A stretch of DNA of 62,987 nucleotides, filler included, from Perkinsus olseni (GCA_013115125.1; 5 parts of 5 records of this genome joined end to end with filler, not necessarily neighbours in it); one strand, 5' to 3'; numbered from the whole stretch's first letter, positions 761 to 62,987 are shown. Notes: generated by a model not told the origin, from the sequence alone. Translations and numbers: made by a program.

Positions 761-1890
761 ATGAATCTACACCGCACCTTCCTCATCCTCGCATACCTCA
801 TCCTGGAGGCTCACGGAAGGTTTGCACGCTCACGCCGTTACGGAAGGGTTCGCGAAGAGACCAAGTCGCTGGAAGAGCTCTACGCCGAGGCCATCGCTGA
901 GGGAGGCGACCTTCTCGTCTATCACGGCGGTGATCTCCCTGATGCTGAACTTCAGCAGCTGAAGACGCAGTTGCCAACGCCTTCCGGGAGGCCTTCCCCC
1001 AGATTAACATTACGATAGTCGTCGACTACAGCAAGTACCACGATGCTCGTGTGGACTATCAACTCGAGACGGATACTCTGATTGCCGATATTGTAGCGTT
1101 CCAGACTGTCCAGGACTACCCACGTTGGAAACGCGAAGGCCAGCTATTGCATTACAAACCAGCCGGCTTCTCAGCGGTCTACGACGGCTTCAAGGATGCC
1201 AGAGATGGTGCCTGGTTCTCTCATGTGGTGTATACCTTCAGCTACTTCTACGATCGAGAACTGTTGGCAGCGGAGGGGCTTCAGCCTCCTGCAACTGCCA
1301 ATGACCTGGCTGACCCTCAATACACCAACCTCATAGCCTCCTCCTACCCACACGACGATGACGCCGTTTTGTTCGTCTGCATGCGCCACGTCTATGATTA
1401 CGGTTGGGAATGGGCTAGAAGGCTCGCTGCTTTGCGAGTCGAGTTTAAGCGCGGTTCTGATTCTGCGGGAATGGCCGTGGCAGAGAAGCGCAAGGCCATC
1501 GGTTTGGCCGGATCAGCGCCACGCGGGATTGACACGGTGAGGGTCATGATCGGCCCCAACTCGACCTCTGAGTACCTCACCTGGGCCCAGCATATGGCTA
1601 TCCTTCGGAAGGCTCCTCATCCGGCTGCTGCCAAGCTCTTCGTCAATTGGATAATCTCATTGGAGGTTCAGACGACCCTGCTGGCTGGCTCGTCGACTCG
1701 CACCGACATCCCCCCCCCACCGGGCACCCTACCTCCATGGCGAATCAGGCAGGCTAACTCTCTGTGCTTTCAAAGATTCATGGAAGACCGGGCAAACATC
1801 GAACGTCTCAAGGCTATCTTCGCGCTGCACTTTGGCGAGGTCCGTGGCGAGCCGACCCCTGGTCAACTTGGCCTGTACCCCGGCCTGTAG
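761..1890 (+). pseudogene. Secreted ABC-type (Fe3+/thiamine-class) extracellular solute-binding protein, frameshifted by a 14-nt palindromic insertion at 943-964
   Basis: ORFs 761-1018 (signal-peptide-like start, ELYAEAIAEGGDLLVYHGGD) and 1051-1890 (YPHDDDAVLF, APHPAAAKLFVNWIIS) join into one 371-aa intronless frame (...DAEDAVANAFREAFPQINITIVVDYSKYHDARVD...) when 14 nt are removed. Confidence 0.8.
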
Positions 1891-3293
1891 TCTACAGGCC
1901 GGGGTCTACAGGCTGTTGAGGCGCATGAGACTGGTCGTGGTTATATTCTCATCAGCATAACCGCTGCCGAGTGGATCTCGTGGCTTCTCCACATGTTCGC
2001 CCTAAACGGGCCGACTACGTCACCTTTGCCAGATCCCTTTGTTCGTTCTGGCGGTCTTGTTCCGGCGCGCTCGTTGCATTCGACCGTGACGGTCACGTGT
2101 GAAGTCCCACGATTCCGTCTCTCAGTAGTACTCGATTTCATAAACAAGTGTCATTCGATCGTCAATAGTTGTCCTCTTCTGTCCGAGCTGATGGATTTTC
2201 TTGCATGAGAAAGATTTCCCTTCAGCGCTCGGCATCTCCTACACGGACGAGTTGGCCTACGGCTGAGTCACCGGCTGCAAGTCAGCCACTTAGAATTTTT
2301 TCGTCCATGAACCATGTCGCGTTGTCTCACCTCCTCTGCCACTCGCAGTAGTATACAGTGGTGGAACACTCGTCCACAAAGGTTCGTAAACCATCTGATA
2401 ATCGCCGATTATCAGGGATAATTTAATCGCGCGAATTTCACCCGTATTGGGTGCAAAACCCCTGCACAACGCGTATTGCATAACATAACGCGAAGTGAGT
2501 GATTTTAGACCAGAACGCGAAGAAGGTTGGGCTACTAAATATACCGCCATCCGTGACGCGTTGATGTAACGCGTCACAGGCGAGCCACACTACAATTACA
2601 CAGAGAAAGCTCTCGGAAAGTGCGCCTGTCCGAGCTGGGACAACTGCAGCTCGGAGATCATTTACTAGGTCTCCGAACTAGGAAAATGCAACTAGGACTC
2701 GGAACTCGGAGTGGCTGAGCACTTGAACGGGCTCCAGGTAAGTCTTACCTGCACAATTGAAAATGTAGACGCTGGAAACTGGGCCGCTGCGTTCCACGGA
2801 TGCGTTTTGACGCGAAGAGTTGTCGCAACACATCATATCGCGTGTGTCGCGCGGGAAACAGTTCAACACGCAAAACAGGTGAAACTCTCGGGTGTAACGA
2901 TTTCTGGATGAAGCCCTCATGTGCCAATTTCCTGAAGAAATTTTGAAGTTCAAAGATACGAGGGCATCGGTGACTCTAACGAAGCCACAACGAAGCCTCT
3001 AACGAAGACATTTCTAATTCAGCACGACAACGGCAACCTCCTTGCCGTGCTGAATTGCTGGTCGCACGACTTCTACATCGTCTTCGTACATGTTTAAGAT
3101 ATGGTTGCAGAATCGATTCTGAGTTTTACGGTTCCCGAGAGTTCAGCATTCAGCATCAGCATCGCAGCTTGGCTCGCCGTGTGTGGCGGGCGCCATATTT
3201 CTACGAGTGGCGCTCGCCAAAAAAGCTATGGGCAATCATCGATCCGGATAGGTGGATTCTTCATGCAGGAGTAAGTGATATAAATGGAGCTGC

Positions 3294-3780
3294 GATGATG
3301 AATGAATTATTTATCAGCTACTAGAGCTGAAGTACCATGTTGACTAACAGGACCTATTTTTCTGAACGCAGAGCGAATCTTATGTTGAAGCAAACCAGAT
3401 ACGGAACAAGTTGACTGAATGCAATGCTGTTTATGATGACGAATTCAATTATCAGCTACTAGAGCTGAAGTTTCATGTTGACTTCTAGGACCTATTTTTC
3501 TGAACACAGCACGAATCTTATGTCGAAGCAAACCAAATACGGAATAAGTTGGCTGAATGCAATGCTGTTGATGATGATGAACTTAATTATCAGCTACTAG
3601 AGCTGAAGTATCATGTTGACTTCTAGGACCTATTTTTCTGAACGCAGCACGAATCTTATGTCGAATCAAATCAGATACGGAACAAGTTGAATGAATGCAA
3701 TGCTGTTGATGATGATGAACTTAATTATCAGCTACTAGAGCTGAAGTATCATGTTGACTTCAATGACCTATTTTTCTGAT
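3294..3780. repeat. Tandem repeat, ~138-bp unit, ~3.5 copies
   Basis: ATCAGCTACTAGAGCTGAAG recurs at ~3313, 3450, 3588 and 3727, and the intervening sequence is also conserved. Confidence 0.95.
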
Positions 3781-3870
3781 AACAGCCCATGATATTACCA
3801 GCATCTGCTGACTTGCCAACTCTCATAGAAGACCGCAGGAACTGAATTTTTTGATAAGATGAACTGTGGA

Positions 3871-5868: not shown

Positions 5869-7366
5869 ATGAGCTCACCAGATGTGTCATCATCTAGCCC
5901 TTCATCACTGGAACTCGTTTTCAGGGCAGCAGGAGCAGCGGACGAGGGCCACAACGCAGTTCCATCGGTGGTTCCCACCTCGCAGCAGCCTACCAGACCA
6001 GCGTTAGTTGCGGTTCCTGATCACATCCGGAATGCCGGTAAAAGAATAAGATTTGACGAAGCAGTTATTGCGGAGCATGATTTGGAGAGGTACTATGGAC
6101 TGCCTTTCACGAGTCTGCTGGGTATCTTCTGTCGAAAGCGGTGAGATATAAGTTGAATTATGTTAGTAGTGTTGCAGTAAGCTATCTCACCGGAGTTTGT
6201 TCCATTTTGCTGAAACTACAACATCAAGGGATCGATCCGGGAACCTTTCGACTACTTCAGAGGCACTCGTATGACTATCGATGAGCCCGATACCCCCTTC
6301 GTTCGCACGCCCCTGAGCAGCGGCGAGTCGAGCGAGGATTCCTCCTCCACGCATGGCGGCCGTGGGGCCCATATTAGGATGGGAGAAGTATCGAGTGAAG
6401 CTCGCCTTCAGAATTTAGCCAACGTAATCACGGGGGTCTAGAGAGTTTTTTGGTTTTTCCCGGAAATTTTCGCTCATTTTGTTAATTTCTGGTCTAGCAT
6501 GTGGAACGTGAAAAATATGTTTCATCTTCCTTGGTTTTTCATTCGGAATGAATCATTCCGTTGTGTTAAGATCTATTGCTTGGATTCATCATCAGTATGT
6601 TGCGCTCATTTCCGTGACTGGTTTAACGCGCAGGGAAATCACGTGGCCGATGAAGATGAAGGTGATGCAGACGGCGGGGCTGCCAGTTTGAGGATAGACT
6701 TTTCGACGGCTACGGCTGATGAGGCGGAGGAGTTAGAGAAAGCTCGGAAGGCTCGGGAGTTTCATGAGAAACGCAGACGACATTATAACGAGATGCAGGT
6801 CATACGGGGGCCTCGCTTGATGGTGAATGAGCGGAGTGTCTAGTGATTTTCCATGAGAATTCGCTGAGTTCACCATTGGCTCAGTAGGGTCCACTGTAGC
6901 ATCAAGATTGCGAAAAAAATTGCCTAGCGGCGTGTGTGTGAACAGCTATTGAGCAAACCAGAGGCATGTCGCAGTCGTGGCGTTTTATGCTTTTCTCCGA
7001 GGATTGTTGGTCGTTGTACTGTCTACAGGATATTCTGCATTAAATTCATTCGCTTGACTTGGCGGTAGAAGCGATAGCCTTTAAAACTGAATTTTATATC
7101 GGTCACGGCCGTTATAGCGAAGGCCTGCTTGTGGTGAATCATAGCCCAGAACGCATCTTGCGGAAAATAATAATAATTTATGAAGTTGCGGAGAAATTGT
7201 GGGGGGATTTTTTCCTTTTCCTGCTCTGCAGATGGTGCGTGCGTTGCGGGAGCAAGGGCGTTTGGAGGCCTCTGAAGAGGAGGAGGACGATCAGACTGAG
7301 CCGTCTGATGGTGCTGCGAGGGATCAGACTATGGAGAACTGTCGGCATCTCGGCAATCCGTGTTGA
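5869..7366 (+). CDS. Protein phosphatase 1 inhibitor-2 (IPP-2 family), 4 exons (~5869-6089, 6261-6423, 6634-6798, 7232-7366)
   Basis: Spliced product has KRIRFDE (RVxF-type), MTIDEPDTPF and FHEKRRRHYNE, the I-2 signature motifs; GT-AG junctions keep frame. Confidence 0.85.
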
Positions 7367-9652
7367 TTTGCGGTCGAGGTATGTGTGGTGTAGTTTCACT
7401 GTTATGGAACGATATTTTTGTTGCTCAGTAGAATCTGGGGAGAATTTCGTGGCGCGCGGTCGGGTGAAATATGCATGGCTTGCGAACTGGTTATGATTGG
7501 CTCTTTGTAGAGGTTCTCGACTGCTGTCGCGTGCGGGGTGACTGGTCTGCGACATCGGGGTGCGACGATATTCTCGCGAGATCGCGAATGAACTACGAAT
7601 TAGTCCGAGGGAAATTCACTCGTAATTGAGATCATTCTGGTGAGCTTCGGAGCTCGTCAGAGGTCGCATGGATCGAAGCTCGTCTGAGTTCTTGAGAACT
7701 GAATCGGTGACGCTGTCGAAGTGGCGTCCGAAGACTCGATTCTGAGCAGGCAAACAGCCAAACAGTGTAGAGGGTTGGGTGCTGGAGCGCAGAGACTAGC
7801 TCCGCCTGTCGAGTGTGAATTTCTCGGTGGCCAATGCGTTCCTCATGTAACGGGTGGAATTCCAACTCAGTTGAGAGAGTGTTTTTTAGATGTGTAGTCC
7901 TTGCCATTGTCAGCTTTCTAAGTCTTTGCTATCTTCCCCTCGACATTGGAGTGGCGGCCCACGTTAAGAAGCTCGGCCGTAGGAGAGATGTCACCCTCTA
8001 AAATTTCTTTGTATGGATTTTCGTTGATTGGAGCTTCTCAGAGCTCCTCAGTTGGTTATAGTAGCCTAGCAGTCACTGGCAGCTGTTACCAAGGGGATTG
8101 CAGCGAGACACTTGATTTATATATGAAAACCTCACCTTTCGGCAAGGTGAAGCGTCTCGGTGGTAAGACCGGAGGTAGGGAGCTTTGCGGTACTTGGCTC
8201 AAGTAACTCAAGAGGTCGCAGCAGTTTACTAACCATCATTCCCGTACCAGTGAGGAATTTCAGACGGTGCTCGTGGAAATACTAACAAAAACCATTTTCC
8301 ACGCCTTGCAGTTGATAGGGCTGATCATGGGGATGCGCGTTCATCGAAGAAATTCCCCGACTCTTGTACTGCATCCGAGAGAGACAGAGTCATAGGGCCT
8401 TTGGCACGATCTTTACCAGTAGTAAATTACCACCAAAGGTCCACGGAGGAGCTGGAGGCTCATGGCTGATACCTCTTAAGCGGCCCGACCGACCCACTGC
8501 ATGGGTACCCCGGTCGGGCCCTATCTCGGAGTCTGGTGTTTAGACTGCTTAGCAGCGACCTCCGAGGTCTACTGACTTAGTAACTCACGCCCTGACGAGT
8601 CTCCAGCGATGCGCACAGGGGAAAGTCGAAGCCACATGGCTAGGTCAGGATATGTGATTGAGATCGGTACCGCTTCTTCGCTGAACATGCGAGAAGAGAG
8701 CTATGCTAATCCTCTTAGAGACGAGACTACGCACGGTGAGGCATTTCCTACTGCCTCCAGTACGACTCTTGACTCGAGATATAGAAACCGCCCGGACTGC
8801 CATATAGCGGGAATCGCAGAGCAACCAGTGTAATCCTCACCCAATACGAACAGTTCGGACTCCCTTTGAGTAACACTCCTCGGAACTTGTTGCCACCTCT
8901 CGAGGCGTGGTTCTGTGAGCTGTGGGTGATGGCTCCTCTCCCGGCCCCTTGTTTGCATGTACCACGTACACTGTATGAAATGTTCCACGAATGATGAAGA
9001 TCGTTGAAGATCGATCCACGATGTTAACTATAGAGGAAGGTAGCAAGCCATATAATCGTAACCCGATCACGTTGGAGCAAACTAATCTCCACGGGACTAA
9101 CCGTTTGTCACTATCATCTCACCTTTCAACTTTTGTGATCCATCCACTGTCGATGATCCCCACATCGGTTTTGAACGACTCTTGTACTGCTGGGAGCGTT
9201 TAAGCACTTGGTCTGCGGCCGAGAGGACCGGAGATCAGCTTCGGTAACTCGCATGGGCCTTTTTGACAAGTTTCCTGTCTGTGATGCGGAGCGGTTGCAC
9301 GCATGTCCCGACTCGGGGCCCCCGAGTGGTTGCACGCGTGGCCTGAGTGAGCCCATGACCATCCAACGCAATAGGTTCTCACGGAATGAGGTAGCTAGCA
9401 CAACTCCCATGACACAGCCTCACGACCTGCAGTGCCTTGTGCCATGGACTGCGTCGGGACTTCATGATATGCCAGTGCGTTTTGGAACCTAAACACCTAG
9501 CCTATGGTCGTTACTGTGTTTTCGGTACAGTGCATGAGGTCCTGACAGGACCGTCCTGTAGTGGCTGAGGATCGTTCGCAGATAGACAATGAATTGACAG
9601 GACCTTTTTCCTCAGCTCTGGTTAATCCCTAAGCACGGTTTCCTGACAATCC

Positions 9653-10136: not shown

Positions 10137-11421
10137 CGGGGTCGTGTATGAACCGTCATGAGGTAGAGCGGAGAGGTTGAAGGTCGTCGCAGTGCTGTAA
10201 TGATTTCGATTACTCTGATCTCAGATCAGTGATCTGGCGATTGTCACGTATTCCAGGATGTCGATCTTATTAGGATACGCTCGAATAAGATCTCGTGATT
10301 GAGCCAGTGCATCCTTTCTTTGTTCGTATGCTTATTAATAATAAGTATTTACTAGTATTAATAATAATACTAATAATAATAAGTTATTATTAGACTCATT
10401 GAGAAGGAGTGGAGGATCGAGGACTCGTCTGTGACGCGATCATACCTGAATCGTGATGTTTGCTGTGAAGCCCGTGTTGTGCCGCACTGCTTCGTCAGTC
10501 CTACTCTGTGATACTCACGTACTTCATGGTCTCTCATTTTTTCTATTTCGTCAATATCGCTCCGACAGGGAGGATATTCCCATCGCAGAAGAAACTGTCG
10601 AGTTGCACGAGGGTCAGTCATCGATAACGCCTCCCGGGGTCCCCAGCGGGCGAGAGGTCGTGAACACTGTGTCACTCAAACTGAATCAGTGTGCCCAGTA
10701 AGAATTTTGGTTCGCAATTATTGACCATGCATGGAGGGAAATGTCGGTCGACATGATGTCATTGAACAGAGCCCGAACGCGAAGCGATGTCATCGACATC
10801 GCTTCGCTCCTTCTGCGCTGCACGTTATTCAGATTAACCACCACCAATTCCAACTTTCTCAGTCCATGCCTAGGCTCAATGCTTTCTGAGCCCAGTGGAG
10901 CAAGGTCGTGTAGCACCGTGCATCTCTGAGCTCGTCAGGGACGCCTGTGGATGTTAAGAAAGAAGCGCAGAAGAGGTAGTCGTGGGGCGGAGGTGTTGGG
11001 CCAGAATTGCCTCCGTACACTGCTGTCTGGGGGTAATACTAACTGCCCGTGCTGAGTAAAGGGCAGAAGCTGTTGATGTCCGTTTTCGAGCAGCGAACAG
11101 GACAGGTTATTTATGTGGAAATAGAATTCGCGACCAGTTCACTGTGAGAAAGCGGTCATTGAAATGATACGTGGATCTGGGGTGGTGGGAGAGGTGTGAA
11201 GGAAACACGGACAATTGTAGTCTGGTCAGCCGACACGGGTGCCTTGAGGCTGTTGATATAACTTCGGGTGGCCGTGGCCACTGGCCGAGCCGGAAATTGG
11301 TAAGCCGGGAAAAGATTGATTTGGGTGGCGCGCGGAAAATCGAGAACATCTCGATTTCCCGCACGACAAGTCAGATTCCTGCTGGTCCCCCTTGGGGAAG
11401 AGGTAATTAAACCTTCTACCT

Positions 11422-11856: not shown

Positions 11857-12461
11857 CTCGGGCAGCCCGAGTCGGGCTTTCGGAGTCATTCATCAAGCTC
11901 CGCGTTAGATTCGTTCATGTGATTGAACTGAGAGGCCCTTGTGCATTCGAGTGATGACTTCATATCGTTTGTTTGCCATTCTTCTGGTGCTCATCTATGC
12001 CATGTCTATCCATTTAATGGATTCCATTAATTCCATGGGCTAGCGTACTACTGGATGTTATATAGTTGCTATCATTGCTCAGTGTCCGCCGTGTGAACTT
12101 TGGTTCGTCAGTATTCACCACGCATGAACGGGCGGCATGGGGCCCATGCCATGGGCAGCCCATGATGGGCTGTGGCATAGCCGCTATGCTACTATTAGCG
12201 TTTCTCTTTCTATTGCAGCTACTACAGGCGGTGGTATCAGCGGTGGTCTACCGTTTTTCCTGCTGCAACGGCTGCTGAATAGATAAATTTCAGCTGGTTC
12301 TCTCGAGTAGTTTTGTCATACTAATGTCAGTGGCCAGTCATTTATATGCAGCCAGCAGTACTCCCGTGACGATGCCGAGTCGGCCGGCGCAGACCTCCTC
12401 GGGGACACCGACGCCCATGGATGTTAAAAGAATGGCTGAAGAGGTAGTAAGTGGACGGAGG

Positions 12462-18089: not shown

Positions 18090-18205
18090 GTAGGAGCCTC
18101 CTACTAGGAGGGGGACAGCATCACTATGATGTGACTAGGAATAACGGTGGGGGTGTGTAGGAGGGGACAGCATCACTATGATGTGACTAGGAATAACAGT
18201 GGGGG
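18090..18205. repeat. ~50-bp tandem duplication; first copy carries a 14-nt palindromic scar
   Basis: GGGGACAGCATCACTATGATGTGACTAGGAATAAC occurs twice. Confidence 0.9.
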
Positions 18206-44225: not shown

Positions 44226-45165
44226 AGGAGTGGTATGGTTGATGATACTTTTCAAGATCTGTTTTTGGACGCGATTGTGTTGTCAATTGGGGAAGGGGAT
44301 GCCTCGTGACGGTTACCGAAGTCAAATCAGCTGGAGAGTGCGCTTCAAACGCACACTGAGAGTCTCAGTCTGAGACCTTGAACTAAGTCGGCAACGACCT
44401 GGAGAACCTCGTCAGTGTACCACACAGTGTTAGTGCTAGGCTAAGCTGCGTCAGAGATTCCCATCGTTCGCTCTATTACCAAGTTGATTCGACTTGGTTA
44501 AGTATACAAACTTGTTTCTCATGCTACACTGTAGCGCTGCAATGAGGCGTCGAATAGCTTCGTTATGGACTCTTGCGCATGCGTGCTGTGAGAGTATAGT
44601 GGAAGAATCTTGGAAAGGATCCGTGACTTGTGTGTGATCGATGAGAGTGTATTCACGCGACAACATGGCGCTAGTAATCTAGGAGCACTGGATAGAGGGG
44701 ATAACAGCTCTGATTCGATAGAATCATTCAAAGCCCTCCCATTCCTTGGCCGGAGGTAAAGAGTAGGTCGGGTCTGTGACCATCACACTGTCTTAGTAGC
44801 GCAATGACAGTGACAGTCATAACGTCACAATGCTGTCTTGTATTCGTCAGGTAGACCCACACTCTAGCAGGTGAAGGATGCTTCTGGCTGTGAGCTTATT
44901 CACCCGGGTCTCGGTTAGAGCTTTATGCTGGGCCCGGTCCGGGCCGCCCGGACAAGCTGTCCGGACCGAGGGTTAGAAATAAGAGCTCGCCCGGGCTACT
45001 GTTTCACGGTTCTGTGCTCGCCGGGGCCGTGGTTTTGCAAAAAGCAATAGCTCATGCTGCCTGTGAACCGACCCAATTGAGTATAACGCAGATCCAACCG
45101 GATTGATTCAGATTCATAAAACTATAACGTACAGACAACAGAAACCTACAGCTTCAAGGTATGCG

Positions 45166-46358: not shown

Positions 46359-47884
46359 ATGAAGCCACTGTCCTCCGGACCAGTCTACCGTCGCCAACCC
46401 TCTGCGACCTTCACACGAGCAATGATTTACATCTTTTTCGTGGCCGTCAGCTCCACGGTACTTCTACCGCTGTGCTTTTTCACTTGGTGGGAGTCTCAAC
46501 CGTCGCCAATCTTTCCTGCTCCGAAGCAAAAGCCACATCTTCATCAGTGCTCATCGAAAGACGATCAGATCGATTGGGAATTTTTTCTCACTTCTGGAGA
46601 CTTCTTTCGCTATGCAATCGCTCAGAATCGGCCTTCCCCCTTGAAAGTGGCGGAGAGCGAAAAGCATCTATGCTCACCACCGAAGGACGTTAGCCCGACT
46701 TGGAGTGACTGTCTGCCTATTAATCCGAGTACAGACCCGGAGAGGTGCCTCCTGGCTATGAGAACGGAGCTGCTGAAAACGAGTCCAGAGTTCGTTGGGA
46801 AGGTCTGCATGTCTGCTTTATTGGATATGATATTGATCGATGTTGATGAAGTTATGCGAGAGCTCGGGTGTCGTCCTCTGCTTACTTTCGGGACGGCACT
46901 GGGAGCGTCTCGGAATGGCACGCATATTCCCCATACAGACGACGTTGACTTAGCGTGAGTTGAAGGGAAGGCGGAGGGTGGCTCGGGATTCCCGAGTCGG
47001 GAAAATGAGAAATCTGAGAATTGTAAATTTTTCGTTTGGCTCAGGTAACGTAGTCGAGTCGAGAATTCATCCATTTACAAAATTCACAAATTTTCACATT
47101 CACAGAAACTGATATCAGTAATAATCTGGTATAGCGTACCCGAACGGCACCAATTATGAGGGCAGCTCGAAATTGAACAGCCGTGCAGAGGAGGCACTCC
47201 CGCCTGGCCACCGCGCAAGGTTTCACAGGATTAGACTCTCGCAGTATTCGGCACATGAAAGAATTGACTAGCTGGTGATGGCCGTGTATGGCTATTGTAT
47301 GCGGGAGAAATTTGGTATGAGAAGTCGGGCAACTCTACATTCCCTCGTATGAATATCACATAACGTAGTTGAGCTTCTTCTTCGACCGTTTCGTGGATCA
47401 AGGACATTGAAGACGTAGCGTACTGATGGCCAGTCATAGGTACGTAAAAGAGGACGATGAAGATTGTTTGGGCAGTCGCTTCACGGAGCTGTTAAAGAGC
47501 CGCGGACTCTACACGTTCAAGGATGAGCTCATACGAGTTTGCATCGCTCCTTTTCACCCACTGGCGTCCAACTTGTACGACATCCACCACCCACAGCCAT
47601 GTGGCCCCGAGCGATCGTGCGGGTATGTGGACGTCTATCCACTCGTACCGTACACCGGCAACAAGCCGTACCATCGAGAAGGGAAATTGTATCGGCATGC
47701 GCCCTACGACGGGTACCGAATGAGCGAAGAACAGATATGGCCCCTTCGAAGCGTCTCGATAAATGGCAGGAAATTCGAAACGTTCGCTGACGTGGAAGAT
47801 CTGCTCGAGAGAAGTTACGGAAAGGATTTCCTGCATCCGAAAGGAGATGATGAGTATCTTCGCGACCTCGGTATTCTCGTATGA
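46359..47884 (+). CDS. LicD/fukutin-family nucleotidyltransferase-fold type II membrane protein, 2 exons (intron ~46955-47439)
   Basis: N-terminal TM segment; FGTALGASRNGTHIPHTDDVDLA; YVDVY; IWPLRSVSINGRKF; LLERSYGKDF. Confidence 0.88.
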
Positions 47885-49678
47885 TGTTCAAGAGCTGAAC
47901 TATGATTCAGCAGCACCTTTTTTCAAGTCATCCCGATTTCAATCGTTCTTCGCTGCCGACCAGCTTGTTGTATGCATACTGGAGTGACCGTTCTGTGGTA
48001 CGGTAATGTCCATTCGTATTACTGTTAAGTTCACTTACTAATGGGGGGGTACTCTCACACCAAGTGAGAGAGAGCGCGGGATCACTGTGGAAATTGAAGT
48101 TGGGCGGCAGAAAAAATTCTGAAGGCTAGTGACTAGCCGCTAGTGCCCTGGATAAGAAGGGAGAGCAGCTAACAAAGAGGTTTTCGGCAAAACATACACC
48201 AGTCGAAAGCCCCACAAATTTCTGATCTGATGGGCCGGTTTCGGTCCAACATTCGCAATCGAGTCTCAAGTTCTCTCAGTCTCTCAAATCTTGAGAGTCT
48301 CAAGTTGAAACTCGAGTCTCGAGTTTAACTACCGAGCCGTGATCTGAGATTTCCTCGCTATCAGTTCACTGCAACACGGTGACTGCCTAATTGTGGCGGC
48401 GGCTAACGAACGACTGTACGATGAACAACAGACGACGTATGAGGATATATTCAGACTCCTGCTGCACGGAATTTCAGCTACTCTAACACGTCAAACACAG
48501 CTCCCTCTTCAAACTGTAGGGTGGAATGATTCCACGATCCCACTGGAATCGGTTACTAGCGAAACTAGTGGCCCGCAAATCTCACGCACACCCTTGTCTC
48601 CCAACTTCGTGCAATGCGAACAATATACTCCTGGGCTGGCTTTTCCGCCCTCCGTCCCTGGGCGGGAACTGTCGACAACAGTATGCAGTCCATGGGTCTC
48701 TGACTCTTAAGCTCGTCGTTAGCTCGCATTAGTCTCCAAGTTATGTATCAGAGAGAGTGCCCTAAGTAAAGATTATGTCTTCAGACTTCCCATTAAGCTC
48801 CTCGATTGTATTCTCCTAGCTTTGTGTTAACGGATGACAGAGCTGTCCCCGCCTCGACGTCACGCCAAAGCAAATTCCTTTGAATGTTGAAATTCCCATT
48901 GCTGAAAATTTATGTAAGAAGTAAGAAGTCTCTCAATGGGATAGAATCGCACCAGGAATCCTGCGGGTAGAAGAAGCACGGTGTTAGGGTGGACAATAGG
49001 GCGGAGGCTCTGTACCCTTACTCATAGAACGTCACTAGTCACACACCACAGTGACATTACTGATGAGGAATTCGTTTTAAGATACTTGGCCATATACAGC
49101 CACAGACAGGCTCCCACAGCACCAGTGGAAGGAAGGGACGAAACGATGGATGCATATCTGAAAGCTATCCTGAGGATAGTATCCTCCCGCCGGAGTTCAG
49201 CGGAGGTGAACTAATTTCGCGAGTTCTGCGAGTGTCGCGATGTGACAGTCAACGGTTCAGGAGCAGGCAGCCGGTGTCGCGGAGGAGGCAACCAGTGTCC
49301 CGCAAGGGACAGCCGGTGTCCCGTCGAAGCGAGCGAGCGCGAACGCGTGCTTAGCGCCGCCAGGCTAGCGAGTGCTGCGCATGCGTGCACAGCGCTATTT
49401 AAATGAATCACAATTCTTACTTTTCTCTTACTAGCAAGTTCGTGGCGGTCTGTGAGTCGATATTGAGACTCGCGACGGCTCATCCTTGATTTAGGGTCTA
49501 TTGAGCATCTCGACATTCTATTACGGTGGCTGCAACTAGGCTCTTGTGGTCCACAGCATTCTTTACGCCCATATTCTTAGCTTCTTCCGGGGCATAACGA
49601 AACCGGTATGCTTCATCTGCTCTTGAGCGCTGCTTAATTCTCAGAAGCTCATTTTCATACAGCTACTTTACGCTGTCA

Positions 49679-51929: not shown

Positions 51930-54020
51930 CTTTTCCTTAATTTTCTGGGGTCATTTTCTGGGGCTCTAACACTCGAGTTCATTCTCCTTTTCGGAGTTTC
52001 GTATCCGTTCGAGAGAGAATATTGAGCTCAGGGTGGTATCAATTTCGTGGCGCGCGGTCATTCTCTGCAGTTAGCAGCTCCCGTCATGGTGCCGTCGTTA
52101 GCTGCAGATTGTCGCCAGTGTCTTGACTGGCGCCTGCACGACCACACGTTGTTCCCTCGAATTCACGCAGCAGTAGAGGGCTGCCGGGCGGAAGCTCAGG
52201 TAGTGGGGATACGGATGTCGACTCCGGTCCACTCTTCGATCAGGGGATTCGTTAGGGTAGCCGACAGTTTTGTAGTGCTCCCTTGTATTGATTATTTTAC
52301 GCTCGCCCGGTACTCGTTGGTAATTTGCCCCGGTGCCTCTACTATGGTGCTATAACATCATATTCTTCGACGCGCTGGTGGACGAGGATCGCGAACGGCG
52401 AAGGCGATCAGATCTATCTGAGAGTTACCAGCTACTTCGACCACCTCTGGGGGAGCACAGCCGGGTAACAGCGAGTTGAGCTCGCCGTCGGCTGGTCGCC
52501 GAGGCCGGGTCGGATGTAGTTATCGAGCGGGATTGGAAGCTCGTTGAGTCGCAATGCCAGAGATGCGGAGTGTATCGCTGTTGTGGGAAGGGCTGCGAGA
52601 CGGTATGCTCCCGCGATCCGACCGCGGCGGTCGGCACAGCTCGGCTTTTGACGCCAACGAATCGTTGGCGAGTCAGCACTCAACGGCAGCTTCTAGTCGA
52701 TCATCGTTGGCAACGATATGCTGTGATAGTGAGCTAGCTTCTGATTGCTGTTAGATTCCCACAACAGAGGAACGACGTTGAATGCGGCGGCGTCTTCATC
52801 ATCTACTAGGCCGAGTCATTGACGGTGGGAGATACTAGATACTTTCGGTGGTGCGCGTAAGATTTTCCGTGATGCTAAGCAAAGCTTCGAGGCATTTATG
52901 GCCGAAGCCTTCGGCCATGGCAATCGCCGTGGCCCTGATGCGAGGTGGGTATGATGCGAACGGTGCTTGCTGGTTGCTTCTTGCTAATCTAGCAACGCTA
53001 CACAGCGGGTATTACAGACGATTCTTTGCCCTGGACGTAGTATGTAGTAAGTAGTAAGTAGTCGTAGTTGATGTAGTAAGTTACTACAGGGTTGTATTTT
53101 ATCGCAAAGGAGGGTTTGGCGCGCACATCGCTGTGCCTGCATGTTTGCCACCGCCCGGAAGCATTGAGCATCTTCATGGGGAGTCGAAGATAGCGATAAT
53201 TGAGCTTTGTGCTGAGTTGAGGTATGCAAAGTCGCTTCTAGCAGTGGTAGTAGCGAAGCCGGGGTAAGACCGCAGAAAAAACTGTCGAGAACGCTCGGCA
53301 CCTCTACGGTGAACACTAGTCAGGCAGATGCTGCAGTCTAGTTATGTGCCGGATGCCGAGATGCTCTGAAAATTTTCCGTATTTTGAATTTTGTCTACTT
53401 TTTTCTCGCCTGAATATTAGGTAGTCGCATGTTCTTCCGATGTTAGAATCATCGCCTGCACGATGCCTCATGGTTGGCCATGCGGAAAATCGGCCACCAT
53501 TGGTCTCGGCACACCTCGACAGTCGCGATGAATCATGATGGAGGTCACAAGGCAGCGGACTTCATACGAGGTTGCATAGCCAGGTAGTATCAATCTACTT
53601 ATTCGTACGACTCCCGAAGTTGAGGGTTGAAAGCCAATTTTGCATTCGCTTGGGCCGACCAAGCGAATGATCCAAGTTGGGCTATTTTTTGCCAAGTGAA
53701 GAATCAGAAAATGACTTCTTGAAGCGGTCCGGGAAACCCGGATGCTTTCTACGACGAGCTGGGCTCATCGACTGGCAATATTGGCCAGGTAGCCAGTATC
53801 ATAGCAGTAGCCGGTATTAAGCTGGCAATACCAACTTAATCAGCTTGATCACAAACGCGGTACGTGACGTCGGATCTTGTCCTCATAGGACATAGATGCC
53901 ACCTTCGGCCCTTCGGAGTCCTATTCTTGAGTGTGCTGAGAATTCGTCTCTCAGGCACCTGCGTCATACCATTGTCCGCCCCTGCGCTGAACACTGTCAC
54001 TTGAAGATGCTGTGAGAAGT

Positions 54021-54209: not shown

Positions 54210-56694
54210 ATGTCAACTTCGACGGCTAATAAACCAGTGGCGCCTCGTGGTGGCCGCAAAGATGCCTTCTCCTCGACCTCCCCAGTGAGAGGTAAGGGGG
54301 ACAGTAAGGAGAAGGGAGGAGGAGATGAGCACGCCTTGAATAAGGAGATGGATAAACTGATGGAAGAGCAGTAAGCGGAAGGCCCCCGGATCGAATCCCA
54401 CGAGGGGCATTTGTATTTTCTATAGTGCCCGCATTCAAGAACGGTTGGCTGAGACGAAGCCGCCACCTGTCGATTCGAACGAGGTTGGAGGGATCGTGGA
54501 TTACGATCAAGATGATGACGGAGCAGGAGGAGATTCTGGGGAACCCACAGCAGGTGATTATCGTGAAAGATAATTTCGTGGCGCGCGACGGTTTTCGACG
54601 TGATCAGATGGTCGGGCTGGTAGACAGCAGTCTCAACCTCGGCAATCTGAGGAATTAACAGAAGAGCAGCGAGAGAAGGAGGCGAAAGCGAGGTTCATCA
54701 AGAGCGAGCTCGGAGGCTTTTCGGAGGCTAGTCCGCAGGTGGGTGACGCTCAGGCTTCTCATAAGTGCTCAAGTATCCCGGGTACCGTACCCCGCTTCGG
54801 ATTCGAGCTGGATCTTATTCTCCCTTACAAAACACTTCATTTCGATACGGCAAGTGCTAGTGTGGAGTGCGTGTAGAATTTCTCGGCAGCAGTTTATTCG
54901 CAAATAACGGCTGACGTATTTCTTCTCTCATGGTGTGACAAAGTTCGGCTCTCGCGGGTGGTGGGAGTCTGGGTCAGCTTTTTAATAGGGGAACAACTGA
55001 ATGCTTTGGCCATTCTTGTTCATCCTGGCCATTCCAAAGACTTTTCTACTAGCGGCGGGAATCGCACATCATCACAAGGCGCCTGTTGACACTCTCTGGT
55101 GCCATACCCGTCGTAGTACTTCGTCAGTCTGAACGGGTTTCTGTGGTTGATCCTAGATTAGTCCTGTCTCAGATACGAGAGAGCATGAAGAGGAATAGGA
55201 GGATGTTCGGTAATCTCCTTGGGCATCTCGGCAGTGCTAAGCAGAGGCTCGAGAAGGACAGAAAGAGAGATGCGGCTCAACGTGAGAGAAAGCAATTTCG
55301 TGGCGCGCGGTCATTGGACGTGAATTGGTCAGGCCAGGAGGAGTGTGCTCAGAGGGTCGAGGCAAAGCTTGCGAGGCAGCGCAACAATCTGAGAGAAATC
55401 AGACGTCTCGAATGGGAGGAGAGGAGGAAGCAAGATCGCGAACGGCTGGTACGATGGTGGGAGGGCGTACCCGAGGTTGACCCTTGACATGTAACCACTC
55501 AGGAGCAAGTCTTGAAGGAGATGGAAGCTAAAAAGATCGAGTTGCTAAAGATACGCTTGCAGTCACACTACAAGTAATGTGACGGGAGTCGATTCTCTGT
55601 CCCCATTGTCTTATCCCCCTCGGCGTCAGGCAAATGACGGGGTTCATTCGCACCAACGCTCAGCCTTCGGTGTTCTACTTGCCGAAGCATCACAACTCGG
55701 AAAGCAAGGAGCTGTTGGAACAGACGAAACAACAGGTGGTGAATGGATGGTCTTTAGTTTCATGGGCGTATCTTTTTTTTGTTTAGATCGAGCAGAAGAT
55801 CGCGTCAATTCCGTACAGTTTCGCAGAGTTCGGGGAGCCCACTGTAGCGTCTGCAGGAGATGTCGAAGAAGAGAAAGAGGCAGCAGGTAAGGAAGTAGAA
55901 AAGGAAACGGAGAAAGCAGTTGAGGAAACTCAAGAGAGCCCAAGAAAGCAAGTGGATGAGGATATGCGAGAATCCAGCGAGCCCAGTAGAAGTGATAGGA
56001 AACGATCTCGAGGTGAGAATCCCACCGTGAGATCCTCGCTCCTGTACGGAGGTGCAGAGTTTTTCGTTTCTTTCCGCGTGCTTGGGGACTGAGGACGAAG
56101 ATTTCAACAAGAATTTTCTTTTTTTGGCGACGTTTTGGCTGCTCCTAGAAACTGCGATATCATCGGGGAGATACTAGCAGTTTTTGCATATTAGGCGAGA
56201 CGGATGGGAATAGCATGTAACATACTGTACTTACTGTATGTTCACGTTCAGTCCGTGGTAGACCATTTTTATCGTGTATTTTACTATTCTTCTCCTCCTC
56301 AGATTACTCGGGTTCTCCGGAACGATCGAGGTCTCGTCGTCGAAGCCGCTCTCGGTCGAATACCCGCAGGAGATCTTCTCCGTCACGCAGAAGATCTCGG
56401 AGGTCCTCTCGTGATGAGCAGGATGCGTCTGAGAGGCACCGCCGTAGGGCGTCACCATCACGCTCGAGGTCAGCCGGCCGGTCGAGAAGGAGGCGTAGAT
56501 CTTCGGCCTCAAGAGAAAGGAGGTAAGATCTTATTCAGTGGCCTGTTTGAAATTACTCTCTGGCTGGGAGTATCCGACTACGCCAGGAATATCTTTCTCG
56601 CTCGGAAGAAAGTCTTTCCACGTTTCACAGTACTGAGAGTCTTTCTTGGACTCAAGAATAGTCTTTGGTGCCCCTTCATAGGTCCTATCGTTGA
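54210..56694 (+). CDS. PNN: Pinin/SDK/MemA-domain splicing-associated protein with RS-rich tail, multi-exon
   Basis: KRNRRMFGNLLGHLGSAK; FIRTNAQPSVFYLP-type segment; Arg/Ser-rich last exons. Confidence 0.85.
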
Positions 56695-56879: not shown

Positions 56880-57075
56880 CTGGTCTGAACTCAGAGAACT
56901 ACCAACCACAATCACTCTCACTGGCCCTCGCCATCACCTCAGGTGATTCACCTGCCATCGCAGTGGTGGACTTGAGTTTGCGCACATCGGCCGAGAGCCG
57001 TGGCTCGCATGTGCCTTCATCACGTTCCGCTGGGCGATAAAGAAAGTTCCCCGAATGATGAATATGTTAGTGCTG
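56880..57075 (+). repeat. Dispersed ~200-250-bp repeat; second copy at ~61505-61775
   Basis: Shared GGCCCTCGCCA.CACCTCAGGT..ATCACCTGCCATC.CAGTGGTGG...TTTGCGC.CATC.GCCGAGAGCC...CGAATGATGAATAT. Confidence 0.85.
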
Positions 57076-59545
57076 GAGGCTCGCCTGTCACGAGGTGTCT
57101 CCTAGTAAGTGGCAATGCTGGTAAAAGTTCGTAGAGGTAAGCGTAGTTACCTGAAGTTTACGATGTTCCCCGCTAGCACCCTATGAACACTATTTGTAAG
57201 AAAGAGTTAGATACCGTTGCGGTGAGAGTGTTGATGCATGGTCCTCGCGCTGCCCGGTGGTGAGGGCAGTTGATGACTTCGAATCGGATGTACGGTACAT
57301 GTACCTCCGTGTGAGGAAGTGAAGACCCTTTTTGTCTTCGCCATTCCGGTCGATAGTACGGGAGTACCTCGTGGACTCATTCTGGTTCGCTCGCAATGCC
57401 AGCAAACCAGATATCGCTCCCTAGGGCGACGTGAGCTTCCGTAGGGTGATGACCGTCCTGGTTCTTAGATTCAGTTCGACAACTTTGAGGGTGGAGGAAT
57501 TGTTCCACATCAGTGCGAGGCTCGTTTGCGACACACGAAATGCTAGATTGCTCCTGTCTGAGCTAAGATCGGCCGATTGCAAAGTGGTATCTTCACTCTT
57601 GAATACATGATCCGAGGATGAAGAATCTCCATTGGAGATGACTGCGAAGCCAGCAAGCTCCGGACTATCCCTGCTAGTTACATCCTAAACAACGAGAACG
57701 ATGAGACTTTCCGACAGCCGTCACCCATATCAGCGGGTGAGTGGCAACCTGAGGTTGCCAACCTCTCCGTGTAGTGACAGCTGGTGCGTGGTCGGGCTCA
57801 TACAGACTCTATTCGGCAATTCTTTTCTTCGTGCTAGGACATTGCTCTACAGCCGCGAGGCGCACGCGAGACTCATCCGGATCGTCCCTTTTCCCGGCCC
57901 GGGGGCTCCGGCCCATGAATGGCGGAAGAGGCGGTGGAGCGAAGGCAGAGTACCTCCTGCCGTACTGTGAGAAGCTGCTTCAAAAAGGGGTGAAGAGGTT
58001 ACTGTGCAACTTTGCATTCAATTTGCAATTTTGCTTCAATCACGCCCAAACATTGTACCCTCGTTGCTCAGCTATGTAAGGCATGCCAGTCGGAGCCCCA
58101 ATTCGAATGTTTAAGGATTGAACTTCAACCCGCGATTTGTAGAATAAGGAGAGCTTACTCAATGTAGGCTGACGTTGTGAGTGTTTCGTACTTGTTAGTG
58201 ATATTGTTGGGCTCTACTAGATTGGTCTTTCATAAGATCAAACTGGTTTGGGGTTTTACTAATTTGATCTGGGCTTTATTGAATTGCTCTGGGGTTTTAC
58301 TAAGTAGGTCGGGAAATGGTGTAGATGCCATCTTATACAGCTCAAAATCGAACAGTAATGAGTTGCGCAGTCAAAATTCGGACAGCTTCTAGAGATACAG
58401 CGTCGTTCAATACAGTGTCCACCGATACAGCGACAAGTCGTTGAGGATTCAGCTATATGCGTAAAACTAGCAGTGCTAGGCTAGGACGATGAACCGACAC
58501 TCCATGGTGGGACACCGCGCACGCGTGTTGTGCTTCTCCACCTCTACTGTTGTTCTTTTCTACCTGTGAGGCTCGGCCTGGCCGTCTCAGCGCCTGAAGT
58601 TGTGAATCTGGATCTGTAACTCTTGGGACAATACTACACAAGATTATGTGAGTGAAGGTGTCGTTCAGGGCTGTCGCGCCTTGCCCGCATCTGCGCATGC
58701 GTGCCAGGCGGTCTAGCTTAAACTAAGCTAGACCGGCCATGCATCTGCCTGCCTCCCATCAGTGTTTGGGGAGAATGGGGGGAATGTTTTAGGGGGCTAA
58801 TTTTGGAGTATCATGAAATCACTGGCCCTCAACAAAGAGTCAACATTGTACGAGCTGATTTGGCTTAAATTAACTCATATAGTGTCGGAAAGCACAAAGA
58901 GAGGGGGGGGGGGCGGGAATCCGAGCCTCGGATTCCAAGAAGAGACAACGCGTGCGTGGGGCAGGGCAATTGATGCCAGCAACAGTGGCACACATTCTGC
59001 GCCTTTTCAAACCGCCCAGACCAAAGGTCACAGACCTTTGAGTGGATGTGAGGCGAGAGAATCAGTTGTTGGAACGATCACAGTGAATACACGGATGGTG
59101 ACGACGTCGCCGTGACGTGACGCCTTGGACGGGCCTGATAGTGCGCCACCGAAGCTTCCTGAGCGGAGAGAAAACTCCCATAGCGATATATCCAAGAAGT
59201 TTTCCGTTATAGTTTCAACTCTATGGACGTCGGCGATAACCTCGAGTATCCAGTGAAGCAATCAGCAGGACCTTTGAAGCAAGGGAAGTCCCGGCTGTAC
59301 GCCATGCCGGCAGGTCTCGGAAGGAGACAGCGCCTGTCTCCCACTGGCTAAGCTGTGTCGGAGCTCCTACCGAGAAACCGTGCACGCGTGCATACGGTCA
59401 TTTTCGCGTTTCAAAAAGCACCAGAATATGAGGTTGGCCGGGGCCATGCTCAACTCGGGCAGCTGCCAGCCCTTGGCAACAGTCTGTCCTCCTCTTGGTA
59501 GTTCTTCTCTCTCCAGTATTTTATCCTTCACTTCTAATGCTTGTA

Positions 59546-60439
59546 ATGAGACTGATTCTGTTGCTCCCGTTGGCCGCAGCCGAACTGCGTTCATCCCATC
59601 ATGGGAAAGGGGGCAACGCCTGTAACGATCTCTGCAAGCTCATCCCTGGATGCTCTAAAAAAGGCTCCCACTGCAAATTTCCCCCTAACCCGAAACACCC
59701 CGCCCTGTGTCAAGATTTGTAGGTACACTCGGGATTTGTTCGAGGCCTAGGCCCTTTGTTTTAGGCACTTCGTTAAGGCTCCTCACTCCTCTAATGCGAC
59801 GGCGTGCTCAGTATGGGCCAGTGGATCGAAGTGTCCAACGGATTATCCAGTACGTTGTGATGACATTCAGCCGTGTAAGTAGCTTTCCATGATCTCCCGC
59901 GAACCAGACCTGAAATTTCTCTCAGTTGACCCCTACAGGAAGCCAAGATTCCCTCACAAGGCTCACGCTAAGCTTGAGGGTTACGGCAAGAAGAAGGGCG
60001 ACTACGGACACGTCTATTTCGAGGAGGAATATTACGATAAGACGAAAGTCACCTACGAGATTCACAACTTGAAACCACACGGTGTTTATGGCATGTACGT
60101 TCATGAGAGGTCTTCATTCCACCCTCACGGTTGCAAGTCCACTGGTGGCGTCTATGACCCCTTCTACAACGGCCCTAAATACGGCTATTCTAAGAACAAA
60201 GCTGTTGGTGACCTTGGTTACATCAAAGCTGATGCTCGCGGTGTTGCACACGGTCATTTCTATCACCAATACGTGATGGTGGAGGGTCCTATCTCTGTCG
60301 TCCATCGTCCGGTTGTGTAACACAACTTGTGTTGCACTATAAGGGCGATGGCAAGTACGACGGCAAGTACGGTGGCAAGTACGATGGCAAGTACGGTGGC
60401 AAGTACGACTATCTGGCTTGCGGCGAGATAACCGCTTAG
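59546..60439 (+). pseudogene. Secreted Cys-rich domain + Cu/Zn-SOD-like fusion, 3 exons, truncated by a 14-nt palindromic insertion at 60312-60333
   Basis: Signal peptide, CNDLC...GSHCK...CQDL...CP...PVRC, then SOD fold (YVHE, GCKSTGG, VGDLG, SVVHRPVV); removing 14 nt restores VVLH...LACGEI*. Confidence 0.85.
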
Positions 60440-62135
60440 AGGTTAACGGTGATACTACAAGGAGATCGACTCAAGGTCGAGTGGTACTCCTAATTCAGCT
60501 TATCATCGAGGGGCTTCGTCCCATTCTATTGCTCCAGGCAAATCGCTACCTCGATACCCAGTAGTTTTTCGTTGTAAATCGGGAAGAGGTCTACAGTCCG
60601 GTACACGATTGACCTGCGGGGAGTTCGTATACTGATGACAGTCATTCCTCGAGACTTTGACTACCAACAGCATTAGAATTATTCCGCTTGCGTTTAAACT
60701 GCACACAACAAATGAACTCGTTTATCGATTGATGACTCATCAATGATGAGTAACTTGGCCAGGTCGGCCAGCCCTAGCTTGTAGTCGACTCAAGTCCCAT
60801 TTTTCTTGTCGAGCGATTGGTCGAGGCAATTGGGCACTTGACTTACTAGTGATTTGTTATAAATGTGGGCACAAGGCAACCTCGTGTTGCCCTCAAGTTT
60901 GAAGCATCTCGCTGCACTGTCCGGAGACTCTGGTGTCAGCGTTCAACGATGCACGAAAGAGGGTTTCAGCACCAGTAGGCACGCAGAGCAGCACTCTCCA
61001 ACGAGCCACAGCCCAATAATAGAATTGAGAATTGATAGCAATCATCTACTAGTCGCAGCTCTTGGCAGAGCAAGAGTGGGGGTGTATTTACTGCTCGTAT
61101 GTAATGCTAAGGTCGCCAAGGTTCGGCTCTTGGGCGCTTCTTGTATCTTATCATTATGGCCGTTTGCAGTAGTTCTGGGTTCCAGAGAGTCTCCGCTGCC
61201 ACCGATTAGGTTCCGCACCGGCTTCCTGTCATCTACCCAATATGACGGACTCGACTTTCTGGCGAAACTGCGTCTTACGATGGAGCAATTTGCAGCCCTT
61301 TAACAAGACAGCTGGTCGAGAAACTCGGTGTTATATATCGCTCTTATAGCCATGCAGATAACCCGGAAAGCGTGGCTGGCGCACATTCATCGAATAATGG
61401 AGCTGCCCGAGAGTGGTACGGATACCGAGTCGAGCGATTCCTTTGTTTCTGTCAGTATCCGAGGCCGAGAATCATCTGACGAGCCTATGAATGAGGAACA
61501 CTATGCACTCTGAAGTTCAGAGTCTGAACTTCAAAAGATACTCAACGCATTCACTCCCACAGGGCCCTCGCGGCGAGGGCCTCGCCACCACCTCAGGTCA
61601 ATCACCTGCCATCACAGTGGTGGCATTATTCCACTAGAATAGACTTTGCGCGCATCCGCCGAGAGCCCGCAGTACCCCGAAGTGCTCTGAACGAGAAGCT
61701 GTCTGTCGCATGTCCCTCCGCCGTGTAACGGTGAGTGTTGAAAAAGTCCCTCGAATGATGAATATATCAGTGCAGGACGTGTGTCTGTTGCTCCTGGTCG
61801 CTATCATAGTCAACCAAACACTTCGTCGACGCAGCTTCTGGTAGTGATAATAGCAAAGGGATCAACCAAAAGTATTGCGCCAATCAATCTCGTACTTGCG
61901 TGCTGCAGCTAGTGTAAAATGTTGAAGAATGACAAGGTGACAAGTTGATACCATACTGAGTCCGCGTACAGCAACATGTCTGTCACGAGATGGCTGGTGC
62001 TGCTCAACTCTAGCAAATATGATTGAAGTTTCTTTGTGGTGGTATCTCGCAAACTCCAACTCGCAAACGCAACAAACATGGTTGATGATCCGACAGCATT
62101 GCATGTACGCAATTAATTCCGCACTTCTAATGTAC

Positions 62136-62603
62136 TCAATGATGAGATAAAAGGCCTATCAATGGCGCACCTATCACCACCAGAGATGTATCTACTAATG
62201 TTCCACAAGTTGCTTCAGATGTGATCTTCACTTCAGCCTCGACCTGTGGACTGAGATCTGGCGTCGTCTTCTGTGTCAAAAGAGTTGCCAGAGCTTCTCC
62301 CGCAGTGACACCAGGCACGCAAACGTGTCCACAAGCATTGGGGCAACAAAGTACATCATCACCTGAGAGAGGAATAAAATCCGACCCGGTCACACAGCAC
62401 GAGTCACAAGTCGTCGCTCACAAGGGCGGGCTTTCTGCTTAGGGCGGCTTCCACTCCTTACCGCAAAGCTCGCCGGGCAAGCACATCTCCACGCAGATAC
62501 CCATGAATTCCGGGAGAACCGGTGGACAAACAAGATCTGTCTTCGAATCCAAAATGCCTCCCACGAAGTTGATGACAGTCGCCAATAGGAGAACAATCTT
62601 CAT
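62136..62603 (-). CDS. Secreted WAP (four-disulfide core) domain protein, 2 exons (62603-62462, 62362-62136)
   Basis: MKIVLLLATVINFVGG signal; CPPVLPEFMGICVEMCLPGELCGDDVLCCPNACGHVC has the 8-Cys WAP spacing; hydrophobic C-terminus. Confidence 0.8.
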
Positions 62604-62987
62604 GGGAAGACAATAAATATCCTGAAGGGGGATTGTCCTTATGAGGATCGGACCGATCCCGGTACCGGGTACCCCGATTCTGCTTCAGGGTCCCTGAAGC
62701 CGTACAACCTCTGGCACTGAAGGACTCTGTCACTGACAGGCTGTCAGTGACAGGGCCTCTGGCCTACCGATGAAGCTGTAGACTATCATAGTCTGACTAT
62801 GACCTACATGACCCGCAGCTTTGATCATCTGAGGTCGCGCCGGTCGCGGCGCAGACGAGCGTTTCACAGGTGTGGCGAGCGAGAAATTTTCGGCGCCGTT
62901 GATCGACTTCAGCGCTGTGGCGGTCCAGTGGTTGACGAACTCGACATGGGAAATGAGTGGGATCAAAAGTTAATCTTCTTATCTTAT

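Follow-up and report, generated by a model that had tools for sequence, protein, structure and literature searches.

Stereotyped +14-nt palindromic scars in Perkinsus olseni DNA, probably the healed donor sites of a hAT-type transposon

The DNA considered here, a 62,987-nt stretch of assembly GCA_013115125.1 of Perkinsus olseni, a parasite of clams (the stretch is called the window), consists of five pieces of ~12.6 kb each, separated by the linker N44-TTAATTAATTAA-N44, and carries a bacterial-type solute-binding-protein gene, a Cu/Zn superoxide dismutase gene and, in four of the five pieces, multiple copies of a palindromic 22-mer. This 22-mer, referred to below as a scar, has the form T[1-7]+revcomp(T)+T[2-8], in which T is an 8-mer. 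Piece 3 (25331-37845) is rich in trinucleotide repeats, has a guanine-plus-cytosine (GC) content of 0.36-0.41 and contains an intron-bearing Dis3/Rrp44 gene. Perfect trinucleotide repeats also stand at the ends and starts of pieces, as (TTC)n at 12462-12595 and (AAT)n at 37946-38018, and short-read contigs typically break at such repeats.

The geometry of the scar was characterised by scanning the window for nine forms, in which each outer copy of T is shortened by 0, 1 or 2 bases, at word lengths (k) of 4-13. The geometry with one base trimmed on each side gave 30 exact matches at k=4, which is the chance level, none at k=5-7, 20 at k=8, and again none at k=9-13, while the eight alternative geometries gave no match at k=8, and the untrimmed form, T+rc(T)+T, none at k=5-13. 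When one mismatch was allowed there was still nothing at k=9-12 and a single match at k=7. The peak at k=8, on which the preliminary description of this DNA had staked its case, is thus sharp, exclusive to that length and confined to one geometry. At k=8 with up to two mismatches the scan returned 46 rows, of which 20 are exact, 15 carry one mismatch and 11 carry two. The corresponding totals over twenty sequences simulated from a second-order Markov model of the window were zero, zero and eight, the last amounting to ~0.4 per window. Removing rows that merely overlap other scars (62733 with one mismatch; 11850, 21825 and 61515 with two) leaves 20 exact, 14 one-mismatch and eight two-mismatch copies, 42 scars in all, or one exact scar per ~3.1 kb and one scar of any grade per ~1.5 kb.

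These results confirm the original observation and make it stronger than first reported. All 16 exact sites named at the outset are exact 22-mers, although that list was incomplete, with 6538, 44931, 49165 and 56933 bringing the tally to 20; the three one-mismatch sites named with them (20502, 48124 and 62726) are among the 14 found here. The statement that four of the five contigs are scarred also holds, piece 3 being free of scars at up to two mismatches. An exon of the Dis3 gene in that piece is 98% identical to P. olseni, so the piece belongs to the same species and yet is scar-free; scars are likewise absent from a 20.5-kb contig of unrelated origin. The features are given below by window coordinates, with a strand for the two genes only; "RNA-like contigs" are those of two public runs described after the list.

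761..1890, plus strand, bacterial-type solute-binding-protein gene, in two frames split by scar 943; transcribed with the scar
59537..60436, plus strand, Cu/Zn superoxide dismutase gene, truncated by scar 60312; C-terminal motif downstream in a shifted frame
943..964, exact scar in a coding exon of the solute-binding-protein gene; +14 frameshift
6538..6559, exact scar, newly listed; within the GT..AG intron 6424-6633 seen in the RNA-like runs
9538..9559, exact scar, from the scan and DNA-run contigs
10215..10236, exact scar, site covered by RNA-like contigs
11857..11878, exact scar, site covered by RNA-like contigs
12008..12029, exact scar, site covered by RNA-like contigs
12135..12156, exact scar; its final 7 nt are the initial 7 nt of scar 12150
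12150..12171, exact scar; target shifted by 1 nt relative to that of scar 12135
18090..18111, exact scar, from the scan
44355..44376, exact scar, from the scan
44931..44952, exact scar, from the scan, newly listed
46982..47003, exact scar, from the scan
49165..49186, exact scar, from the scan, newly listed
56933..56954, exact scar, newly listed; common to paralogue B, where it is decayed
57744..57765, exact scar, from the scan
60312..60333, exact scar that puts a premature stop into the final coding exon of the superoxide dismutase gene
60729..60750, exact scar, from the scan
61508..61529, exact scar, missing from paralogue A
61565..61586, exact scar, missing from paralogue A (empty site 56925-56932)
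62780..62801, exact scar, from the scan
8412..8433, one-mismatch scar
9305..9326, one-mismatch scar
12168..12189, one-mismatch scar
20502..20523, one-mismatch scar
21512..21533, one-mismatch scar
21818..21839, one-mismatch scar
43878..43899, one-mismatch scar
48124..48145, one-mismatch scar
48290..48311, one-mismatch scar
52612..52633, one-mismatch scar
56012..56033, one-mismatch scar
57618..57639, one-mismatch scar
59097..59118, one-mismatch scar
62726..62747, one-mismatch scar within a forward/reverse chain of four segments, which row 62733 also represents
9141..9162, candidate two-mismatch scar (chance ~0.4 per window)
19506..19527, candidate two-mismatch scar
20526..20547, candidate two-mismatch scar
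20724..20745, candidate two-mismatch scar
52481..52502, candidate two-mismatch scar
58466..58487, candidate two-mismatch scar
58919..58940, candidate two-mismatch scar
61620..61641, two-mismatch scar; paralogue A is 14 nt shorter here
61587..61608, decayed scar with three mismatches, counterpart of exact scar 56933 in paralogue A
56925..56932, empty site for scar 61565 in paralogue A, with the 8-mer once
56966..56973, empty site for scar 61620 in paralogue A
56883..56890, empty site for scar 61508 in paralogue A

Public sequencing runs were matched to window positions 500-10400, and contigs of four runs, from four studies, were aligned to positions 1-12460. In the two DNA runs, X1 and X2, contigs with no differing letter and no gap bridge all eight exact scars of piece 1; for X1 the bridging records span 114-2671, 5363-8239, 9344-9801, 9791-10584 and 10608-12363. 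The other two runs, X7 and X8, resemble RNA: the GT..AG joints 5264>5924, 6087>6259, 6423>6634 and 6793>7227 appear in neither DNA run, and X7 and X8 each have a contig that starts at 744, shortly upstream of the start codon at 761. Their contigs cover four scars of piece 1 (943, 10215, 11857 and 12008), and two of them, 744-2704 and 744-2303, carry scar 943 unaltered. The scars are thus present in independent libraries, in DNA and RNA-like material alike. No 14-nt gap or joint was seen at any scar in the contigs of the four runs, and removal of scars at the RNA level is ruled out at the covered sites, save for rare forms that contigs may miss. Similarly, no scar-less allele was reported at the eight sites of piece 1 in these four near-identical runs, although contigs demonstrate presence only and could miss rare scar-less forms, so that this is not evidence of fixation. 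Across 8209-9421, unlike the rest of piece 1, read depth in the DNA runs is doubled and variants come in pairs, each at about half of that depth, and this segment is probably present as two diverged copies or alleles.

Measured against an unscarred relative or paralogue, the scar is a +14 insertion at five sites (943, 60312, 61508, 61565 and 61620), the empty-site relative being exactly 14 nt shorter in each case; two of the five lie in coding exons. In the solute-binding-protein gene, the open reading frame (ORF) 1051-1890 has its best relatives among P. olseni proteins (86-96% identity), and the P. olseni homologue P0001 aligns to the window in two frames, residues 1-63 in one frame up to position 949 and residues 62-371 in the other from position 958, being itself continuous where the window has 14 additional nucleotides. 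The superoxide dismutase ORF matches a P. olseni protein at 100% identity, and its alignment to the Sod_Cu profile ends at position 106 of 133, exactly where scar 60312 makes a stop, with the conserved C-terminal motif found downstream of the scar in a shifted frame. The public P. olseni model P0121 terminates at this scar-made stop, and a second P. olseni protein, P0122 (92% identity), is continuous and free of the insertion. Removing 14 nt in silico markedly lengthens the open frame at 943 and 60312, as well as at 57744 and 49165, while most of the remaining scars lie outside long reading frames. Outside Perkinsus, the relatives of the solute-binding protein (761-1890) are found in oomycetes and in actinomycetes such as Streptomyces, a distribution that suggests an old horizontal transfer of this bacterial-type gene.

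The remaining three polarised sites are found in piece 5, where two paralogous stretches of ~130 bp, A (56883-57000) and B (61508-61667), can be aligned. At each of the B scars 61508, 61565 and 61620, A holds the 8-mer once and is 14 nt shorter. A further scar is common to both stretches, being exact in A (56933) and bearing three mismatches in B (61587-61608). Because one scar is shared by the paralogues and three occur in B only, the alignment places the formation of scars both before and after an old duplication. Among the one-mismatch copies, 10 of 14 mismatches are transitions, and they are distributed over all three copies of T, as expected of decay by point substitution after scar formation. 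This mismatch spectrum, together with the five empty-site relatives, fits the earlier characterisation of the scars as a fossil record.

The product itself is close to invariant, as had been proposed. Forms with 2, 3, 4, 5, 6 or 7 palindromic bases between the outer copies number 3, 3, 0, 1, 0 and 1, near the simulated level, compared with 20 for the form that retains all eight; forms with 0-2 such bases are indistinguishable from chance. Palindromes with a one-base centre and arms of 7 nt are in great excess over the window (39 observed against 2.0 simulated), and centres of 0, 2 or 4 bases show no excess there over simulation. Outside recognisable scars there are ~13 more one-base-centred palindromes, with arms of 7-30 nt, where simulation gives ~3, and these may be one-sided or heavily decayed events. 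Those with arms of 7-10 nt lie at 45222, 48308, 48521, 52652, 52703, 52898, 53072, 62645, 62682, 2395 and 2735. The longest, at 9929-9989, is a perfect 61-nt palindrome with 30-nt arms and the same one-base centre as the scars, and no third copy or duplicated 8-mer adjoins it. Another, at 1877-1913, has 14-nt arms and a one-base centre; its start coincides with the final codons and stop codon of the solute-binding-protein gene, and a further inverted copy of its last 8 nt follows it. The overall excess of 28 nt is suggestive of two events, but no simple nesting fits. An iterative or nested origin was considered for the palindromes at 1877, 2395, 9929 and 52652 and did not resolve them.

A target logo was built from 34 targets, symmetrised to 68 strands. 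T2/A7 (T at position 2, A at position 7) accounts for 29 of the 68 strands, with a nominal p of 0.002 that rises to ~0.03 once the 16 tests are allowed for. This is in line with the nTnnnnAn preference that had been weakly suggested by T at position 2 in eight, and A at position 7 in five, of the 16 sites first listed, counts that are correct for those sites. At least as strong is C3/G6, in 30 of 68 strands (p=0.0002-0.002), and positions 1 and 8 carry G or C in 46 of 68, giving a consensus of roughly nTCnnGAn. The scars are also clustered, with 14 adjacent pairs less than 200 bp apart among the 42 (5.2 expected, P=0.0004), and are nearly confined to 2-kb bins with a GC content of at least 0.49, the 11 bins below 0.47 holding one of the 42.

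The scars are probably the healed donor sites of a hAT-type cut-and-paste transposon, joined via the duplicated 8-mer. The following course of insertion, excision and repair, and the naming of the element as hAT, are proposals that would account for the product. The element would insert with duplication of an 8-bp target, T. At excision the transposase would nick each flank one base inward, and the freed 3'-OH would attack the opposite strand, leaving covalently closed flank hairpins, each tipped by the complement of the nucleotide formerly next to the element (t8' for the left flank, t1 for the right). Nicks placed 8 nt or more from each tip would then let the two hairpins unfold, exposing 3' tails that bear rc(T) and T and have, from the duplication, perfect 8-nt complementarity. 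Annealing of these tails, trimming of flaps and filling of gaps would yield x-T[1-7]-rc(T)-T[2-8]-y. This product is 14 nt longer than the empty target and, as derived from the chemistry, would be the same regardless of the position of hairpin opening; point substitutions would subsequently erode the scar. In the observed scars each of the two 15-nt palindromes indeed has at its centre the complement of the nucleotide predicted to adjoin the element, whereas flush hairpins of the RAG/Transib type would be expected to leave T+rc(T)+T, the form with no match at k=5-13.

As first proposed, the attribution to hAT excision agrees with the strict 8-bp length, the one-base-offset palindromes of a single geometry (one-base centres alone being in excess), the target bias and the empty sites; the element itself has no counterpart in the window. 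A search through 6,326 inverted 9-nt seed pairs, spaced 40-8,000 bp, turned up no terminal-inverted-repeat element bounded by an 8-bp duplication; the sole pair with an 8-bp flanking repeat sits in a trinucleotide repeat and is not credible. A Pfam scan detected no transposase family in the 150 longest of 178 ORFs of at least 85 aa, which bears out the earlier remark that the window holds no intact transposase.

Two other candidates for a source were rejected. One is a dispersed repeat whose 95-nt arms, at 3871-3965 and 4473-4567, are inverted and 87% complementary, with a third copy at 39139-39213; it has a DNA-run depth of ~7,600 against a baseline of ~75, corresponding to roughly a hundred copies, and shows no flanking duplication (3871-4567). 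The other, a DNA joint at 10637>12324, has no repeat structure at its ends. A 138-bp tandem repeat of 3.6 copies, 90% matching, lies at 3294-3786. No tRNA genes or Rfam families were found in the window, a metagenome scan for Perkinsus relatives gave only one match, at 24% identity, and a literature search for Ku and ligase IV in Perkinsus gave nothing usable.

Besides the missing element and transposase, several observations weigh against hAT excision. The footprint spectrum lacks the heterogeneity of known hAT footprints (28 types in 128 events in the available portion of PMC5873905), and a near-uniform product means that both hairpins would need to have been opened far from the tip nearly every time. 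The density at up to two mismatches is high; the tightest cluster, which the preliminary description did not foresee, packs four scars into ~130 bp, and the targets of scars 12135 and 12150 lie one base apart. The T2/A7 bias is modest, weak to moderate, and the solute-binding-protein and superoxide dismutase genes are, apart from their scars, intact and transcribed, which was likewise not foreseen.

The strongest rival, albeit an unlikely one, is an endogenous process that requires no mobile element. This could be a domesticated nuclease that forms hairpins at hot spots, or a template switch in replication or repair that copies 8 nt of the opposite strand and then returns. The want of a visible element in the window, the strong clustering and confinement to GC-rich bins, and the near-uniform product all favour such a process, and Kat1 is reportedly a domesticated hAT transposase that makes hairpin breaks. 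The product, however, carries the information of T three times, so a prior duplication or new synthesis is needed. A switching polymerase has no ruler for exactly eight bases and a one-base centre in 20 of 20 cases, and the variable lengths and switch points expected of it are not seen, k and the offsets being fixed. The palindromic target preference, furthermore, points to a dimeric, transposase-like DNA-binding enzyme.

It is improbable, and more so than the preceding alternative, that the same chemistry was performed by an element of another superfamily, such as a Mutator-like element (MULE), which makes 8-bp duplications, or a Merlin/IS1595-like one. No report of a hAT element in Perkinsus was found in the literature search, MULEs combine 8-10-bp duplications with flank hairpins in the accessible text of PMC5499845, and Merlin-related ORFs are reported from Perkinsus marinus, with 8-9-bp duplications known elsewhere (PMC8101967, as far as its available text goes). 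MULE duplications nevertheless vary over 8-10 bp, where here the length is strictly eight, with nothing at k=9-12 even when one mismatch is allowed, and more than 90% of Muta1 excisions in yeast are described as precise in the accessible text of PMC5499845. The cleavage chemistry of Merlin is not known to produce flank hairpins, and the P. marinus copies are without detected terminal repeats or duplications in the available text of PMC8101967. The one-base offset and T2/A7 preference, by comparison, are documented for hAT.

A sequencing, amplification or assembly fold-back artefact has next to no standing, although the extreme uniformity first hinted at an algorithmic or library origin: four runs, each of a different study and two of an RNA-like kind, were assembled separately and their contigs hold identical scars, a public protein model terminates exactly at a scar-made stop, mismatched and paralogue-shared copies show evolutionary decay, and both 12.5 kb of the same genome (piece 3) and the unrelated 20.5-kb contig are scar-free, so that an origin in assembly or library preparation is excluded. 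There is just as little chance that the scars are functional, for example by letting ribosomes hop 14 nt between identical codons to give a full-length protein, since despite the matching take-off and landing codons 14 nt apart that flank a hairpin in each scar, the stop codon immediately after the scar at 60312, and the otherwise intact, transcribed state of the scarred genes, there is no translation evidence, most scars lie outside long frames with one in an intron, and they decay like neutral sequence.

In its broadest form the hAT-type reading is tentative, and rather less probable than the attribution of the scars themselves. Perkinsus would carry a hairpin-forming hAT-type transposase, mobile or domesticated and possibly active, which, combined with hairpin opening far from the tip and microhomology joining, would leave one deterministic 14-nt palindrome per donor site. 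Extrapolated from the window, this would amount to tens of thousands of datable scars genome-wide, with trails of local hops at hot spots, and scarring might be one of the main ways in which gene families lose working members. If so, the genome holds a readable history of excision and double-strand-break repair for which no described parallel in any organism was found; no published description of such scars was encountered in the literature on Perkinsus palindromic insertions, hAT elements, the genome, repair genes or excision footprints. Typical excision footprints are too short and varied to be recognised, leaving the history of cut-and-paste transposition invisible. A product with 14 constrained bases, by contrast, can be found without a reference, counted, dated by its decay and mapped, such that the frequency with which elements depart, the places where they land and the mode of break repair would become measurable in a protist parasite. 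For annotation, scars are frameshifts in two real genes, those of the solute-binding protein and the superoxide dismutase, and at least one public protein model is already truncated by one. Tens of thousands of perfect hairpins may also affect transcripts and genome stability, and should mobile elements turn out to play no part in the process, the scars would constitute a new mutational signature.

Several known systems resemble the scars in part. Short template-switch mutations draw on neighbouring sequence to produce local inverted copies and perfect hairpins, with variable lengths and switch points, whereas the scars have a fixed 8-nt ruler, a one-base centre and a target motif. The P nucleotides at V(D)J coding joints (RAG, with its Transib relatives) arise from hairpin-capped flanks opened off-centre, which gives palindromic additions; RAG/Transib hairpins are flush, their palindromes have no central base and the duplications are of 5 bp, and the scars depart from them in that the matching form, T+rc(T)+T, does not occur here at k=5-13. 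Muta1, a Mutator-like element, shares flank hairpins and 8-9-bp duplications, but in the accessible text of PMC5499845 its excision is mostly precise and its duplication length variable, while the scars are strictly of eight. Hermes, itself a hAT element, comes closer, with 8-bp duplications and the target preference nTnnnnAn in the available part of PMC10368747, and is matched here by the 8-bp length and by T2/A7 in 29 of 68 strands; unlike that motif, the scars also favour C3/G6 (30 of 68) and G or C at positions 1 and 8 (46 of 68).

The closest likeness is to Ac/Ds in plants, budding yeast and Candida albicans, which shares with the scars one-base-centred palindromes, flank hairpins and microhomology. 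In the available portion of PMC5873905, Ac/Ds footprints contain palindromes centred on the complement of the base adjoining the element, and in yeast the palindrome arms reach up to 20 nt, with microhomology in 88-89% of the yeast footprints. The Ac/Ds footprints described there are varied and mostly short, while in P. olseni almost every recognisable event is one product, with both arms at their full 7 nt and joined via all eight bases. The uniformity of this product, its density and its tight clusters surpass what is described in the accessible parts of the papers compared, and where the Ac/Ds record is that of a reporter assay, the scars constitute a genome-wide, inherited one.

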